From a virus: a DNA stretch of 28,646 nucleotides. The stretch lies in IMG/VR virus record IMGVR_UViG_3300021255_000007; one strand, given 5' to 3'. The notes under the pieces are model-generated. The model was not told the origin of the DNA. It did no database searches and saw only the letters and a list, made by a program, of their open reading frames with translations. Positions 5,205 through 28,646 of this stretch are shown here, piece by piece (within the stretch, counting starts at the first letter, position 1; each line of letters starts with the position of its first letter). The position numbers and the translations under genes were made by a program.

Positions 5205-7483
5205 TACCTTGCTTATACGACAAAACGGCAACAGTTTTCTCCTCCCTGGGGAAGGGGATGCTGCGGAGCTGTACCAGTGCCATCGTGACCGAGGAGGTCA
5301 ACGGGATCTTCGAGCTGGAGCTTGAAATAGCAAAAGCGGATCCTCTGTATGGCGAGATCGAGGAGGGCAGCATCATCACGGCAATACCGTCCCCTTATCG
5401 AGGGCCGGAGCCTTTCCGGGTGTACAAGATCGAGAAGGCCATTGCAGGGGTTTCCACGGTATACGCCCACCATATCAGTTATGATCTGGCTGCCATCCCG
5501 GTGAAGCCTTTTATGGCTTCCAGTGCTGCGGCGGCCATGCAGGGACTCAGCGACAACGCGATGACTGATTGCCCTTTTACCTTCCTCACAACGAAGAGCA
5601 CAACGGCAAACTTCAATTTGGAGATCCCGCAGGCGATCCGCACCACGCTGGGCGGCGTAGAGGGCTCCATCCTGGACACCTATAGAGGTGAGTATGTTTT
5701 CGAGGGCCTGACCGTCACGCTGAAGCAGAACAGAGGGAGCAACCGTGGCTTCCAGGTGCGGTATAGAAAGAACCTCGTGGGCCTGACTGCGGAAGAAGAT
5801 TTTTCCGGAGTCGTTGACGGCATCCTTCCCTTTTGGACTGACGAAGAACAGGGAACGGTATACGGATCTATCCAGTGGAAGACCGGAAAGAGCTCCGGGC
5901 GTGTGGTGACGCACGACTACTCAGATGCCTACGAGGAAAAACCGACGGCGGCACAGCTCAACGCACGGGCGGCGCTCCTCGTAAACTCGTCCGGGTACGG
6001 CGAGCCGGATCTGAGCATCGAGGTGGATTTTATCAACCTGGAGCAAATGAGCGGCGGCGCCAGTCTCACCCAGTTGGAGCGGTGCGACCTTGGCGACACG
6101 GTTACCGTGATCGCGGAGCCAGTGGGCGTCACTAAGACGGCGGAAGTGGTGGCGATTGAGACAAACGTATTACTCGAAAAGTATAACAAGGTCACCATCG
6201 GAACCGTAAGAGCCGACATAGCCCAGACCATAGTAGAAAACCAGAAGGCAGCGGAGACCGGGATCAAGAACACGAAGAACTTCCTTGTCTCCGCACTGGA
6301 GGCGGCTACAGCACTGATAACCGGGGCAACGGGAGGAAACATAAAATACCTCTACAACGATGCCACGGGGCTGCCGTCCGCGATCCTTGCCATGGATACA
6401 GACGACACAGCCACGGCGCAGAACGTCCTAATTCTCAACTATCGGGGCTTTGGATTGTCCACAAATGGCATCAATGGGCCTTTTGACTATGCACTAACCG
6501 CAGAAAACGGCCTGAACGCGAGCCTCATTAAGGTGGGCATCCTCCAGGGCATCCGGGCGATCCTGGAGAGCGGCAGCGTCGGAGGCTGGGAGATCGCAAG
6601 CCGGTATATGTACAAGGACGTGGAAACGTCATCCGGAGACAAGTACCGCTTCTTCCTCCAGCCACCGGATGGCGTCCAAAATGTTTGGATGATTTCCGGA
6701 CAAATGTATAACCCGGATACTGGAAAGTATGAAGGAATTTGGCATATAAACGCAGACGGCAGCGCTTACCTGCCGGAAATCACGTCTGAGCTTATGGTTG
6801 ACCAGAAGCTCACGGCAGGCGGTGCGTTTGAAGCGATTGGAGCCGCGACCTTTGACTCCAGGGCGACTTTCAAGAACGGGCTTGATGTTACCGGCGGAAA
6901 CATGACCGTATCCAACGGGCTAGCAGCAAATCAGATTTTTTGTAACAACACTTTGTGGTTTAGGTGGGGCGGACAGGACACCGGGCGCATAGCTATGACA
7001 TCCGGGGATTATATGTATTTCGGAGGCACAGATGTAAACCGTTGGGTGTGTCTTGGGCAAGAAAGTTCCCACTGGGGTTTTTTCCCGTGGTCTGATACCT
7101 ATCTCGATCTGGGATTGTCCGGGAAGCGCTGGGACAACGTCTATGCCCAGACTGGGACGATACAGACCTCTGACAAGAGGCAGAAGAAGAGCATAAAGGC
7201 CCTGGGCCGTAAGGCTCTGGAATTCCTGGGCAATCTGAGGCCGGTGTCTTACCTCATGAAAAAAGGCACCTCAGGCCGCCGGCACTGGGGACTTATAGCG
7301 CAGGACGTCGAGATGGCAATGGCACTATCTGAGATGAACAGCATGGACTTCGCCGGCATCATCAAGGACGAAGAAGGCCGCTATGGTCTGAGATATGAGG
7401 AGTTTATAGCGCCGCTTATCCTGGCGGTGCAAGATCTCACGAAGCGCGTGGAGGCGCTGGAGGGAAAAAATGGTAATGGCTAA
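5201..7483 (+). CDS. Tail-associated lysin-like protein (Tal, prophage tail endopeptidase N-domain) with a C-terminal S74 intramolecular chaperone domain
   Basis: ATG 5201 overlaps the Dit stop (ATGA); the track's GTG start is at 5189. N-terminus 'MIPCLYDKTATVFSSLGKG...VTEEVNGIFELELE' is typical of Tal. The last ~107 aa (7160..7480), 'TSDKRQKK...GLIAQDVE...RYEEFIAPLILAVQDLTKRVEALE', match the Peptidase_S74 auto-cleaving chaperone pattern. Confidence 0.75.
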   Translation: MIPCLYDKTATVFSSLGKGMLRSCTSAIVTEEVNGIFELELEIAKADPLYGEIEEGSIITAIPSPYRGPEPFRVYKIEKAIAGVSTVYAHHISYDLAAIPVKPFMASSAAAAMQGLSDNAMTDCPFTFLTTKSTTANFNLEIPQAIRTTLGGVEGSILDTYRGEYVFEGLTVTLKQNRGSNRGFQVRYRKNLVGLTAEEDFSGVVDGILPFWTDEEQGTVYGSIQWKTGKSSGRVVTHDYSDAYEEKPTAAQLNARAALLVNSSGYGEPDLSIEVDFINLEQMSGGASLTQLERCDLGDTVTVIAEPVGVTKTAEVVAIETNVLLEKYNKVTIGTVRADIAQTIVENQKAAETGIKNTKNFLVSALEAATALITGATGGNIKYLYNDATGLPSAILAMDTDDTATAQNVLILNYRGFGLSTNGINGPFDYALTAENGLNASLIKVGILQGIRAILESGSVGGWEIASRYMYKDVETSSGDKYRFFLQPPDGVQNVWMISGQMYNPDTGKYEGIWHINADGSAYLPEITSELMVDQKLTAGGAFEAIGAATFDSRATFKNGLDVTGGNMTVSNGLAANQIFCNNTLWFRWGGQDTGRIAMTSGDYMYFGGTDVNRWVCLGQESSHWGFFPWSDTYLDLGLSGKRWDNVYAQTGTIQTSDKRQKKSIKALGRKALEFLGNLRPVSYLMKKGTSGRRHWGLIAQDVEMAMALSEMNSMDFAGIIKDEEGRYGLRYEEFIAPLILAVQDLTKRVEALEGKNGNG

Positions 7484-10699: not shown

Positions 10700-10789
10700 T
10701 TTTTCCAATGCTTAAAAGCACCATTTAAGAGACTTGACCATCTTGCTGGCATCAGCCAAAAGGTAGCAAGTTTGTAGCAAGTTGGTATC

Positions 10790-10817
10790 ATGTTCCCGGC
10801 AGAAATGTCGGGAACAT
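10790..10817 (+). terminator. Stem-loop downstream of the fibre gene (possible weak terminator)
   Basis: Perfect 9-bp inverted repeat ATGTTCCCG / CGGGAACAT with a 10-nt loop, followed by only TTT. Confidence 0.35.
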
Positions 10818-10960
10818 TTCACGCCCAGGCTTGCGTAAGATGCGGATCATCTACGCGAGCCCACGCAAATGATTGAGTCAACAACTTAGTCAAAAACCAT
10901 TAACTCAGTAAATGACGTGGATAATGACTTTGATAATGACTTGGATAATGAGGGGAAAAC

Positions 10961-11335
10961 ATGGAACAGATTCACTTTACGTCAGCCTATTGGCGGTTCC
11001 TGCTTCCGGCCTTTGCCGCCGGCGCGGACATCCTGACCGGACTCCTCCAGGCCGGTATAAACAACTGCTATAACAGCTCCGTCATGAGGAAGGGCCTCTA
11101 CCGCAAACTGGGAGAGCTGGCCTGCGTGGTCATGGCCTACGTGGTTTCTATCGGCGTGTCTCTGCCGGTGGACATAACCGCCTTCGTGGCCTTGTATATC
11201 GTGGTGATGGAGTTTATAAGCGTCCTGGAAAACCTCAGCGCTGCGGGGGTGCCGTTCCCGGTCTGGATCCTGCGGAAGCTTAAGAAGGCCGCCGATAAGC
11301 TGACGGAAGAGCCAAAGGAGGAGGGAACGGAATGA
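10961..11335 (+). CDS. Holin (phage_holin_4 / LL-H-like family)
   Basis: 124 aa with hydrophobic helices, an 'ADILTGLLQA' motif, 'MEFISVLENLSAAGVPFP', and a charged C-terminal tail. It sits directly upstream of the endolysin with an ATGA overlap. Confidence 0.8.
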   Translation: MEQIHFTSAYWRFLLPAFAAGADILTGLLQAGINNCYNSSVMRKGLYRKLGELACVVMAYVVSIGVSLPVDITAFVALYIVVMEFISVLENLSAAGVPFPVWILRKLKKAADKLTEEPKEEGTE

Positions 11336-12114
11336 GAGACGTGACGCAGTTACACCCGGAACTTCAGGAGAAGATTGCAAAGCTGAGACTCATGTGTGAG
11401 GCTGAGGGCCTTGCGCTGGGGATCGGGGAGTGTCTTCGGACGGTGGCGGAACAGGATCAGCTCTATGCGCAGGGGCGTACCGCTCCGGGGCCGGTCGTAA
11501 CTTATGCCAGAGGATCAACTTATGCCTCACAGCATCAATGGGGGATCGCGTTCGATATCTTCCAGAACATCCCCGGCCATGCCTATGATGACGTTGGTTT
11601 CTTCCGGAACGTGGCGACCATGGCCAAGAGCCTGGGCCTTGCGTGGGGCGGTGACTGGACGAGCCCGGTGGACATGCCTCACTTCTACCTCCCGTACTGG
11701 GGCGACACCCCTACAACCCTCAAACGTCAGTATGTTGTGCCTGAGCGATTTTTTGTCACCTGGGACAGAGGGGCGGAGAAGCTGGAGGTAGACGGATGGG
11801 CAGGGCCTAAAACCGTGCGGCGCCTACAAGAGGTCTTTGGTACTCAGGTAGACGGCGTGATTACAGACCAGTACGTTGTTTACAGGGACGACAACCCCGG
11901 CCTGTGTTCCGTGGAGTGGGTGCGGATGCCGGTATATGGCTCCGCCTTGGTGAGGGCGATTCAGGAGATGGTGGGGGCGGACATAGATGGAGTGATCGGG
12001 CCGGCGACCATCTCAGCCATGCAAGTCTACTTTGGCACTCCGGTAGACGGTTGCATTTCTGGGCCGTCTGCGCTTATCATGGCCATACAAGACTGGCTTA
12101 ACAAACACAGCTAA
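11332..12114 (+). CDS. Endolysin: M15-family (VanY / L-alanyl-D-glutamate peptidase-like) catalytic domain plus two PG_binding_1-like repeats
   Basis: Zinc-ligand motifs 'SQHQWGIAFD' and 'VDMPHFY'. The C-terminal repeats are 'VDGWAGPKTVRRLQEVFG' and 'IDGVIGPATISAMQVYFG'. Confidence 0.85.
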   Translation: MRDVTQLHPELQEKIAKLRLMCEAEGLALGIGECLRTVAEQDQLYAQGRTAPGPVVTYARGSTYASQHQWGIAFDIFQNIPGHAYDDVGFFRNVATMAKSLGLAWGGDWTSPVDMPHFYLPYWGDTPTTLKRQYVVPERFFVTWDRGAEKLEVDGWAGPKTVRRLQEVFGTQVDGVITDQYVVYRDDNPGLCSVEWVRMPVYGSALVRAIQEMVGADIDGVIGPATISAMQVYFGTPVDGCISGPSALIMAIQDWLNKHS

Positions 12115-12162
12115 TACTTCATTATAGCCTCGGCTTTTTTTATTTGCAAAGGCATAAAGATA

Positions 12163-12180
12163 GGCGGGTCTTCACCCGCC
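12163..12180. terminator. Bidirectional intrinsic terminator between the convergent endolysin and minus-strand genes
   Basis: GC-rich hairpin GGCGGGT-cttc-ACCCGCC. It is followed by 'tccttttatt' on the + strand and by 'tatctttatg' on the - strand. Confidence 0.65.
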
Positions 12181-12185
12181 TCCTT

Positions 12186-12413
12186 TTATTCCTTTTCCCA
12201 ACAGACTCCGACCTTTATGCCGGTGTTCTCGTATATCATCCGGGCAATGTCGCGGAAGGTGAGCGTTTCAAGCTCCGCCTCCTCATTGCCGTCCTCGTCT
12301 ATCGTGGTCTTCTCCACGACCACCGTGCACCTCTGGCGACCTGGCCAGAATACCGTTATAAATCCGTCTTCGGTCGAGATCCTTGCGCCTTGGGACAGTT
12401 CTACTGTGTGCAT
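12186..12413 (-). CDS. Hypothetical 75-aa protein (gene X) downstream of the integrase
   Basis: ATG at 12413..12411 is preceded by a strong RBS (AAAGGAGGAAAGA-ATG on the - strand). The track ORF extends to a GTG at 12476, but that extension covers the inverted repeat and has no RBS. No recognisable motifs. Confidence 0.55.
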   Translation of the reverse strand: MHTVELSQGARISTEDGFITVFWPGRQRCTVVVEKTTIDEDGNEEAELETLTFRDIARMIYENTGIKVGVCWEKE

Positions 12414-12434
12414 TCTTTCCTCCTTTGTCTTGCA

Positions 12435-12476
12435 GTGCTTTTTGATATCATCCATGTGGATAGGATCAAAAAACAC
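12435..12476. other. Candidate attP core for the serine integrase (imperfect 20-nt inverted arms around a central TG)
   Basis: GTGCTTTTTGATATCATCCA-TG-TGGATAGGATCAAAAAACAC. 16 of 20 arm positions are complementary and the central dinucleotide (12455..12456) is non-palindromic. It starts immediately after the int stop codon (12476..12478). Confidence 0.4.
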
Positions 12477-13792
12477 TATAAAAAAATGAGCTCAATGTGC
12501 CGGTCATCGAAGAACCGGATTTCCTTCAGGAGACCGCGCCACAGGTAACGGCGCTCCTGCATCGTGAGGGAGCTTATCAGGGTTCCGATGTCCTCAACGG
12601 CAAGGACTCCTTCCAGGGCGGAGGTGTCCGGCGGTGCCTCTTCGACATCCAGCGCCGCGAGCTCTCCCTCTAGTCCTTCTCGATCCTGGCGGTACTCCTC
12701 CAGTCCGATCAGCTCCGCAAGATATAACTCCTTCAGGCGGTCTATCTTTCTCTTGATAGCCGCCTTTTGCTTTTCCGTGTCCTTCTTCACCTCCTTTCTG
12801 GCCTGAGCCTCAACAATGACCTTTTCGGCTTCCTGCTTGACCTTGGCTATAAGGTACTCCTCTAGGACTGCCTCGCTGATTTGCTTTTTGTTTGTGCAGC
12901 GGCGCGGCGGCACGTAGTAGCACGGGCATCGGTATGTCGTGCGGTTGTGCGTAAAAACCGTGGCCATCCTGTGCCCGCATACACCGCACCGAAGGAGCCC
13001 GGTGAAAAGGTAATCCCTCTTTGCCGCTGCCGAAACGTTCATAGCGAGCTTCCGCTGTACATCCTCGAAAACGGCCTTGTCTATGATGGGCTCGCAGTAG
13101 TCTGAGTTTCCTCGATGCTCTCCGATATACTTCCGGTTCCGGAGTAGGCGCTTTAGGTTCTGCTTCTGACGCAACAGGCCAATGCGCTGACCGTACCGGG
13201 CGGCCTCGTTGAGGCTCCCACACTGGCAGTAGTAATCAAAGACCTTTCGGATGATTTCAGCCTTTTCCGGGACGACCACAAGGTGCTTGTCCTGGATCCG
13301 GTAGCCGAAGGGCACCTTGCCGGTCACGGCCTCACCCTGGGCAACTTTGTAGTCCATCACTGCGCGGATCCTGGCAGAGGTGTTTTCCGCCTCGAACTGG
13401 GCCACGCTCATCATCTGATTGACCACCAGACGCCCGGCGGGGGTGGTGGTGTCATAGATGGGCTCCCAGATTGCCAGCCATGTAACTCCGTACTTGTCAA
13501 GAACCTCCTGCGTGGCCGTGTAGTGCCGGATGGATCGAAACCAACGGTCAAGCTTTGTAAAGATTATCATGTCCACCTTGCCAGCCTTTATGTCATCGAT
13601 GAGCCTTTGCAGCTCCCCGCGCTCCTGGAACTTCCTGCCTGAAACCCCGTCGTCTATGTACTCCCCGGCGCTTATCATGTTGTCGTGCTCTTCCAGGTAC
13701 TTCCGCAGGGCGTCTCTCTGCGCTGGTACCGAGTCGCCTTCTTTTGCTTGGCGATCCGTGGAGACTCGGATATAGCAGGCTGTTTTTATCAC
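12476..13792 (-). CDS. int: Large serine recombinase (phage integrase)
   Basis: 438 aa with a GTG start. It has the N-terminal resolvase catalytic motif 'YIRVSTDRQ', a recombinase domain, the Cys cluster 'CGVCGHRM...YRCPCYY', and a C-terminal coiled coil. Confidence 0.9.
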   Translation of the reverse strand: MIKTACYIRVSTDRQAKEGDSVPAQRDALRKYLEEHDNMISAGEYIDDGVSGRKFQERGELQRLIDDIKAGKVDMIIFTKLDRWFRSIRHYTATQEVLDKYGVTWLAIWEPIYDTTTPAGRLVVNQMMSVAQFEAENTSARIRAVMDYKVAQGEAVTGKVPFGYRIQDKHLVVVPEKAEIIRKVFDYYCQCGSLNEAARYGQRIGLLRQKQNLKRLLRNRKYIGEHRGNSDYCEPIIDKAVFEDVQRKLAMNVSAAAKRDYLFTGLLRCGVCGHRMATVFTHNRTTYRCPCYYVPPRRCTNKKQISEAVLEEYLIAKVKQEAEKVIVEAQARKEVKKDTEKQKAAIKRKIDRLKELYLAELIGLEEYRQDREGLEGELAALDVEEAPPDTSALEGVLAVEDIGTLISSLTMQERRYLWRGLLKEIRFFDDRHIELIFL

Positions 13793-14256
13793 CTCTTGCC
13801 CACCTCCTTACACATGGCGTCGTAACTATTCAGCTTTCTTAGTAAGTTCACGAGAAGTATTAAGTTTTCTGAGGACGCCCTTTCCGCGAGATTTTTTAGT
13901 TTCTCAAGAAAATACTCTTTGTCCTCTTCGTTGAGTAGTTCACCATAGTCTGACGGGTCGTCTTTTCCGTCATACATCTCTGGTGGCATCGTCGAATCTG
14001 CCATCGCGTCCTTCATATCAAGATATTTGTCCCAACTCTCCGGAGACACGCCTTGGATTGGGGCGTCTTCTCCCATGATGGCCTCCAGTGGAACCTGGAA
14101 ATAGTCCGCGATAACTTGCAACTTTCCGACTTTCGGGGTGTATTTTCCCTGTTTCCAGGCCGTGAGCGTGGACGTAGTTACCCCGGTAGCTCTGGAGACT
14201 GTGCCGGGCTTAACTCCATGCTCTTCGCACAGCTTAATAAAGTTCTCGTAAAACAT
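13789..14256 (-). CDS. CI-like repressor (XRE-family HTH)
   Basis: 155 aa with N-terminal HTH 'VSRATGVTTSTLTAWKQGKYTPKVGKLQVIADYF'. It is divergent from a Cro-like gene. Its stop overlaps the int GTG (GTGA). No S24 peptidase motifs are visible in the C-terminal half. Confidence 0.75.
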   Translation of the reverse strand: MFYENFIKLCEEHGVKPGTVSRATGVTTSTLTAWKQGKYTPKVGKLQVIADYFQVPLEAIMGEDAPIQGVSPESWDKYLDMKDAMADSTMPPEMYDGKDDPSDYGELLNEEDKEYFLEKLKNLAERASSENLILLVNLLRKLNSYDAMCKEVGKR

Positions 14257-28355: not shown

Positions 28356-28646
28356 TGTGTTTGATGACGAGCTTAAGGGGCTGATTTATGCAGCCGCGTC
28401 GGATCTCAGAATCGCCGGCATTTCCGGGGCGGATCCCACAACAGAGGATCCGCTGATTATCCGGGCAATAATCACCTACTGCAAGGCCCACTTCGGGCAG
28501 GCGGAGGAAGGAGAGTATGACCGGCTTAAGGCCTCGTATGACGAACAGAAGGCCCAGATGCAAACGGCCACGGGGTACGGACTCGATGAAGAGGAACGAT
28601 ATAGCGGTGCTGGTATCTCAGACGATGGTACTGGATCGGTTTGGGG
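28315..28646 (+). CDS. Head-tail connector (gp6-like 'DNA packaging' family), N-terminal part; continues at 1..129
   Basis: ATG 28315 follows GAGGAG. 'MLEKVKNALRITTNVFDDELKGLIYAAASDLRIAGI...IIRAIITYCKAHFG' is the typical pattern of this family. The frame is open to the window end. Confidence 0.7.
   Translation, partial: MLEKVKNALRITTNVFDDELKGLIYAAASDLRIAGISGADPTTEDPLIIRAIITYCKAHFGQAEEGEYDRLKASYDEQKAQMQTATGYGLDEEERYSGAGISDDGTGSVW
28540..28646. repeat. Right copy of the 107-bp terminal direct repeat
   Basis: Identical to 1..107. Confidence 0.9.

Follow-up and report, generated by a model that had tools for sequence, protein, structure and literature searches.

Large serine integrases of the A118/LI, TP901-1, Bxb1 and phiC31 type are composed of catalytic resolvase, recombinase and zinc-ribbon domains. 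Their attP sites lie beside the int gene, are about 40–50 bp long and consist of an imperfect inverted repeat whose central dinucleotide is non-palindromic. The closest characterised system to the locus analysed here is the phiFL/Phifelvirus integrase. Through a translated search of cultured phages, we found that the integrase of the Enterococcus faecalis phages phiFL1, phiFL2 and phiFL3 is 45% identical, over its full length, to a 438-aa integrase encoded in the 28,646-nt stretch of viral DNA under study (the window).

After joining the ends of the phiFL2A record (GQ478084), we found a dyad, TATTTGCACTAATAAATATTAACCA-GA-TGGATGATGTGACTTAGTGCAAATA, 4 nt past the int stop. In E. faecalis chromosomes that carry an identical phiFL integrase, a truncated radC was found 21 nt past int, and the RadC protein of these lysogens is 183 aa long, with its stop codon coming from the phage P arm. 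Occupied and empty sites were then obtained via the neighbouring HAD-hydrolase gene. The 7 fetched loci with the phiFL integrase (from 4 E. faecalis chromosomes and 2 Logan contigs) have the same junction, at which the phage sequence ends inside the dyad. In the 15 loci where the site is uninterrupted, which represent at least 12 distinct records, radC is intact and the attB is common to all. The attB of the phiFL type reads ...GCTCATA-ATCATCCATCTGG-CAATCCGACACC..., the attR reads ...GCTCATA-ATCATCCATCTGG-TTAATATTTATTAGTGCAAATAAAAT... followed by int, and the attP of phiFL2A reads ...GCACTAAGTCAC-ATCATCCATCTGG-TTAATATTTATT.... The 13-bp block of attP/attB identity holds the centre of the phiFL2A dyad (CCA-TC-TGG) and lies on the radC codons H-N-H-P-S-G. 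In phiFL2A, the sole family member whose lysogens were inspected, the dyad next to the int stop thus serves as the attachment site. Where the cut falls within the 13 bp is predicted from the established mechanism of this recombinase class, and the identity block alone does not place it at the centre.

The radC gene of E. faecalis contains two serine-integrase attB sites about 75 nt apart, one of the phiFL type and one of the phiFC1 type (empty in L162 and L171, occupied in L164, and with another prophage in L172). A phiFC1-type attL in radC was also seen in another E. faecalis prophage. The phiFC1-type site matches the attB/attP primers for the phiFC1 integrase (MJ1), LT94 and LT103, in the supplement of Xu et al. 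2013 (PMC4015280). Like phiFL, phiFC1 is an E. faecalis serine-integrase phage with its attB in the same radC, about 75 nt from the phiFL-type core. We considered it as the closest characterised system and rejected it, since its attP, TATTTTAGGTATATGATTTTGTTTATTAGTGTATATAACACTATGTACCTAAAATTTATT, is unlike the window dyad and it belongs to a different specificity group. Tn554/Tn6674 target radC as well (PMC7371108).

The window has an exact terminal direct repeat of 107 nt (1–107 and 28540–28646), which indicates a circular assembly and thus a genome of 28,539 bp in an excised or replicative form. This genome is small for a temperate siphovirus-like phage, and the ORFs that seem open at the window ends run on across the circular join. 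Contigs 100% identical to parts of the window were found in the sheep-rumen run SRR873598 and in the JGI sample 3300002641.

The integrase gene lies on the minus strand at 12476–13792. Its product matches the Pfam domains Resolvase (6.7e-34), Recombinase (1.7e-10) and Zn_ribbon_recom (2.3e-10) and the PHROG 95 integrase family (7.5e-111), and the RVST catalytic-serine motif was found in it; from these matches it is predicted to be a complete large serine recombinase with all three domains. A gene for an HTH repressor (13789–14256) is located upstream of int on the same strand. The late-gene end of the genome is encoded on the plus strand and closes with a holin gene (10961–11335) and a VanY/M15 endolysin gene (11332–12114). 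Between the endolysin gene and the minus-strand lysogeny genes, the terminator scan found a GC-rich intrinsic terminator at 12162–12181 that is bidirectional, being listed on both strands. A 75-aa ORF (12186–12413, minus strand), which has a strong ribosome-binding site (AAGGAGG) and no family match in Pfam or PHROG, is located between this terminator and the dyad described below. Since the order is late genes, lysis genes and then int and repressor on the opposite strand, the interval from the lysis genes to int is where attP would be expected.

In this interval, the dyad GTGCTTTTTGATATCATCCA-TG-TGGATAGGATCAAAAAACAC occupies 12435–12476, with two 20-nt arms and a 2-nt centre. The sequence-only reading had described 16 of 20 complementary positions around a non-palindromic TG at 12455–12456, and recomputation gave the same values; with longer arms, 18 of 24 positions are complementary. 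The weaker symmetry that it had noticed for about 10 nt beyond each arm was also recovered: 6 of the 10 added positions per side match, and the complementarity over 30-nt arms is 73%. The TG is the exact symmetry centre of the dyad and reads CA on the integrase-sense strand. The int stop codon (12476–12478, the complement of TAG) overlaps the right arm by 1 base, in agreement with the earlier description of a dyad abutting the stop. That description had further called it the only dyad of its kind next to int. When all 28,646 positions were scanned for dyads with 20-nt arms, at least 16 matches and a 2-nt gap, 12435–12476 alone was returned, so that the statement holds for the whole window, and 60 first-order Markov simulations gave a mean of 0.017 such dyads per window by chance. 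When the gap was widened to 0–6 nt, one further locus appeared, the GC-rich hairpin at 12150–12193.

The same reading had judged the dyad a poor intrinsic terminator with an AT-rich, mismatched stem, and this judgement stood in part. The dyad was absent from the terminator scan on both strands and has no U tract; the T run precedes the stem on the int strand, and the A run follows it on the plus strand. An intrinsic (rho-independent) terminator requires a GC-rich stem and a U run, and the dyad does not qualify as one. One point needs correcting, in that the hairpin is not a weak one: the RNA of the dyad on the int strand folds at −23.9 kcal/mol (z = −4.7 against shuffles), with a contribution from G-U pairs.

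The paired half-site matrix described below and the uniqueness of the dyad support a candidate attP of about 48 bp at 12433–12480, with two half-sites of 22–24 nt and the 2-nt centre. The predicted crossover dinucleotide is the TG (plus strand) at the symmetry centre, 12455–12456, which is the same in the related loci L093, L095, L097, L098 and L144. The putative P arm, the integrase-proximal half-site, spans 12457–12476, with an inner TGGA at 12457–12460 and an outer AACAC (the complement of GTGTT) at 12472–12476; read after the int stop, P arm and centre are TGTTTTTTGATCCTATCCA-CA. The putative P' arm, the integrase-distal half-site, spans 12435–12454, with an outer GTGCT at 12435–12439 and an inner TCCA at 12451–12454. 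Its inner 8 nt, in the int sense, are TGGATGAT, identical to those of the phiFL2A P' arm.

A weak sigma-70-like pair, TTGATC-16 nt-TATCAA, was also observed on the minus strand at 12432–12462, upstream of the 75-aa ORF and across the predicted crossover. Its −35 element is in the P arm and its −10 element in the P' arm, and it scores under the threshold of the promoter scan. If this pair is real, integration would split it.

Integrases 76, 74 and 70% identical to that of the window were found on contigs with a convergent endolysin gene about 80 bp past int. These relatives lack the 75-aa ORF. Their spacer of about 80 bp between int and the endolysin gene contains only two elements, a GC-rich bidirectional terminator and, right after the stop, the same dyad (AGTGYTTTTTGRTNNTRTCCA-CA-TGG...). 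We compared the window with them and found that the P arm, taken as the first 19 nt past the stop, is identical at 15–16 of 19 positions, the centre at 2 of 2 and the P' arm at 15–19 of 24, whereas the last 60 nt of int are identical at only 40–41 of 60. The non-coding dyad is thus better conserved than the coding end of int beside it, which points to a functional site. The centre TG/CA is invariant in L093, L095, L097, L098 and L144. The terminator module (an A-rich run, the GGCATAAA motif and the GC hairpin) appears reversed relative to int when window 12148–12195 is set against L093 7105–7150. The reversal, seen against relatives without the 75-aa ORF, may indicate a boundary of the inserted segment.

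The wider family was collected through an alignment of 40 integrases, which led to 44 loci in IMG/VR; most of them come from rumen samples, and their integrases show 43–57% identity. Together with the window and phiFL2A, 46 sites were scored, their integrases being 43–76% identical to that of the window. Symmetry was scored with 24-nt arms around a 2-nt centre over a stretch of 102 nt starting 12 nt before the end of the stop codon. At least 15 of 24 symmetric matches were found past the int stop in 26 of the 46 sites and in none of 43 controls taken 500 nt further downstream. The similar dyad of these relatives lies 0–25 nt past the int stop, and the dyad centres of the family are mostly 19–33 nt past it. 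Most family sites have TC (or GA) as central dinucleotide; CA/TG is found in the window's group and in L144. The bases that recur across the family are G[TC][AG]CT(AA) at −20 to −14 and CC at −3 to −2, that is, an outer G[TC][AG]CT at −20 to −16 and an inner TCC[AG], and the outer GTGCT and GTGTT of the window occupy the family positions −20 to −16. The middles of the arms are variable across the family, neither conserved nor well paired. This pattern of fixed bases and variable arm middles appears to fit two protein-binding half-sites better than an RNA helix.

We built a position matrix from 27 family sites, 26 of which are unverified candidates chosen for their symmetry, and left out the window, L093, L095, L097, L098 and L144. 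The results showed that the centre 12455–12456 scores 29.8 bits (16.5 for the left half and 13.4 for the right, both positive), compared with a training median of 34. The runner-up position in the 28.6 kb reaches 3.4 bits, a margin of 26 bits, and the spacers 12115–12185 and 10700–10960 gave no family-site score in the same scan. GYRCT-N32-AGYRC, the strict form of the motif pair, is not matched exactly anywhere in the window, since the P arm there carries GTGTT instead of GTGCT.

Two of the family loci, L128 and L130 (IMG/VR; 7350–7385 in each), share 87% identity across int and the P arm, and their relatedness ends exactly past the central TC. Their breakpoint suggests a past exchange of downstream modules at the presumed crossover point. 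In many family sites (L083 and L109–L144, within the first 60 nt past the stop), CCN-TCN-GGN (Pro-Ser-Gly) was observed across the centre, like the HNHPSG target of phiFL in radC.

The interpretation of the dyad as attP, which the sequence-only reading had proposed, is supported by its adjacency to the integrase gene, its conservation in relatives, its matrix score and the phiFL2A junction, the last from a relative with 45% identity. The locus combines a neighbouring integrase of the Resolvase, Recombinase and Zn_ribbon_recom type, whose stop the dyad overlaps by 1 nt, with about 40–50 bp of imperfect dyad around a non-palindromic dinucleotide and with half-site motifs that recur, at set distances from the centre, in the sites of related integrases. 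A hybrid junction, attR, was found for the 45% relative phiFL2A, whose attR, attB and attP share ATCATCCATCTGG. The support from phiFL2A arises because the integrated copies of this Enterococcus relative break inside the matching repeat; phiFL2A is a single anchor, with a 45% identical integrase and a different centre (TC/GA versus TG/CA). On this evidence, we consider it highly likely that the dyad centred at 12455/12456 is the attP of the 438-aa large serine integrase. That the cut would fall exactly at 12455/12456 is likely too, with somewhat less confidence, as this crossover position is predicted by homology and not from junctions of the window phage.

The steps of recombination at this site can be proposed by analogy with what is established for large serine recombinases. 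A dimer of the integrase would bind both half-sites of the dyad, with the recombinase domain contacting the inner TCCA/TGGA and the zinc-ribbon domain contacting the outer GTGCT-type motif about 16–20 nt from the centre. The attP-bound complex would synapse with a dimer on a bacterial attB. Staggered cuts, 2 nt apart, would be made in all four strands at the central TG/CA, and subunit rotation followed by religation would produce attL and attR. The orientation of the prophage would be set by the non-palindromic centre. After integration, int and the repressor gene would be located at one prophage end, and the 75-aa ORF, the terminator and the lysis genes at the other. We infer the binding of the integrase to the dyad, as well as the existence and identity of attB.

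Since the predicted hairpin is stable (−23.9 kcal/mol, z = −4.7) and the dyad lies between two genes on the same strand, int and the 75-aa ORF, it might act mainly as RNA: a 3' stem-loop on the repressor–int transcript that stabilises the message or tunes transcription or translation into the 75-aa ORF, with attP elsewhere. However, it has no U tract and is unlisted by the terminator scan, and a proper terminator follows at 12162–12181; because this hairpin and its equivalents in the relatives are separate from the dyad, the dyad is not needed as a terminator. What the family conserves is specific bases (G[TC][AG]CT at −20 to −16 and CC at −3 to −2), not pairs, and the dyad is kept in relatives without the downstream ORF. 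Moreover, the equivalent in phiFL2A is a recombination site, and nowhere else in the genome resembles a family att site. An explanation through RNA with attP elsewhere is therefore improbable in our view. The hairpin could still act on the 3' end of the int message, or couple it to the 75-aa ORF, alongside an attP function; as the sole function, such a role fits poorly.

Symmetric sites by lysogeny genes are often operators, and the spacers at 12115–12185 and 10700–10960 are non-coding and contain repeats. The dyad might accordingly serve as an operator for the phage repressor or for a recombination directionality factor, with integration in 12115–12185 or in the repeat-rich spacer 10700–10960. 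The dyad sequence, however, diverges along with the integrase across the family, yet it stays at the int stop. In addition, 12150–12193 is the GC-rich terminator, neither spacer scores as a family site, and the phiFL2A junction maps inside the dyad, which makes an operator with integration in a spacer very unlikely. A functionless inverted repeat, arisen by chance in AT-rich intergenic DNA, would suit the AT-rich, imperfect arms with their 4 mismatches in 20 positions, but only about 0.02 such dyads are expected per window, the conservation in relatives exceeds that of the adjacent coding sequence, and the independently trained matrix separates the site from all other positions by 26 bits. The existence of the dyad is confirmed, and the statistics and the conservation exclude a chance origin, to which we leave a negligible probability.

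We also searched for integrated copies of the window phage. No attL, attR or attB was seen for it or for its relatives with 70–76% identical integrases, and each contig found has an intact dyad. Exact look-ups of the integrase, of a near-identical variant and of the 75-aa ORF returned contigs with an intact dyad only, and the same was true of look-ups of the 70–76% and about 51% identical integrases. In species-representative genomes, the integrase search gave full-length matches of at most about 30% identity and a few short partial ones of 32–40%; no close integrase was found in 400 Clostridia and 400 Bacilli species genomes. The P-arm/half-site pattern had 0 matches in viral contigs and 2 in metagenome contigs, both chance matches in coding sequence. 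L081/L123, L082, L128, L136, L142 and L144, IMG/VR relatives whose sites looked asymmetric or whose contigs are long, were examined as lysogens or hybrids and rejected, as phage genes and the endolysin gene continue downstream of int; by their gene content, they are taken to be excised-form or moron-bearing genomes. We likewise considered, as the attB of the window phage, a radC variant that codes for HNHPCG and would suit a TG centre, and rejected it: the pattern had a single match in 401 Clostridia genomes, located outside radC and consistent with chance.

The attP reading has consequences for the 75-aa ORF, which after integration would lie at the prophage end opposite int and read inward from the host junction, a position typical of morons. 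The attP could act as a genetic switch for this ORF, which in the circular phage would be transcribed across attP as the final gene of the repressor–int operon; we regard this idea as doubtful but conceivable. If it is true, integration at 12455/12456 would sever the ORF from the operon, leaving it at the distal end of the prophage with the host DNA behind it and its reading direction inward; in the lysogen, either the host target gene or a promoter made at the junction would then govern its expression.

On an equally doubtful reading, the shift of the centre from the TC usual in the family to TG/CA in the window's group would imply retargeting away from a radC-type site. Variants of the central dinucleotide would then form a natural specificity series within one integrase family. 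For an uncultured rumen phage of 28.5 kb, the analysis pins down the lysogeny module, including a candidate attP (about 48 bp) with its predicted crossover dinucleotide. The roughly 40 related sites provide a half-site code (G[TC][AG]CT at −20 to −16 and TCC[AG] by the centre) for a serine-integrase family that has been little studied, and one member of this family is anchored to a real attB, the radC of E. faecalis. The code could be used for calling prophage boundaries in rumen and gut metagenomes, and the family adds candidates among small (438 aa) serine integrases for genome engineering.

Compared with the known systems, the site is very probably an ordinary feature of such phages: this type of attP is already known and the site itself is new, and it leaves the understanding of the serine-integrase mechanism unchanged. 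It has the same general architecture as the sites of A118/LI, TP901-1, Bxb1 and phiC31, but its half-site motifs are specific to its own family, and the sequences show little relatedness to those systems. Against solved structures (TP901-1, Bxb1 and SPbeta), only the catalytic domain of the window integrase was matched (E = 1e-16 to 1e-6). The resemblance to phiFL is closer. The phiFL integrase (gp01) has the same three domains, and phiFL2A, like the window, has an imperfect dyad of about 50 bp a few nt past the int stop, G[TC][AG]CT at −20 to −16, an inner CCA/TGG, an identical inner P' arm and int by the lysis end of a circular genome. The two differ in their centres, TC/GA in phiFL2A and TG/CA in the window. 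They also differ in their sources, phiFL2A having Enterococcus as host with attB in the radC codons HNHPSG and the window phage coming from sheep rumen. Finally, the window, unlike phiFL2A, carries an extra gene of 75 aa between attP and the terminator.
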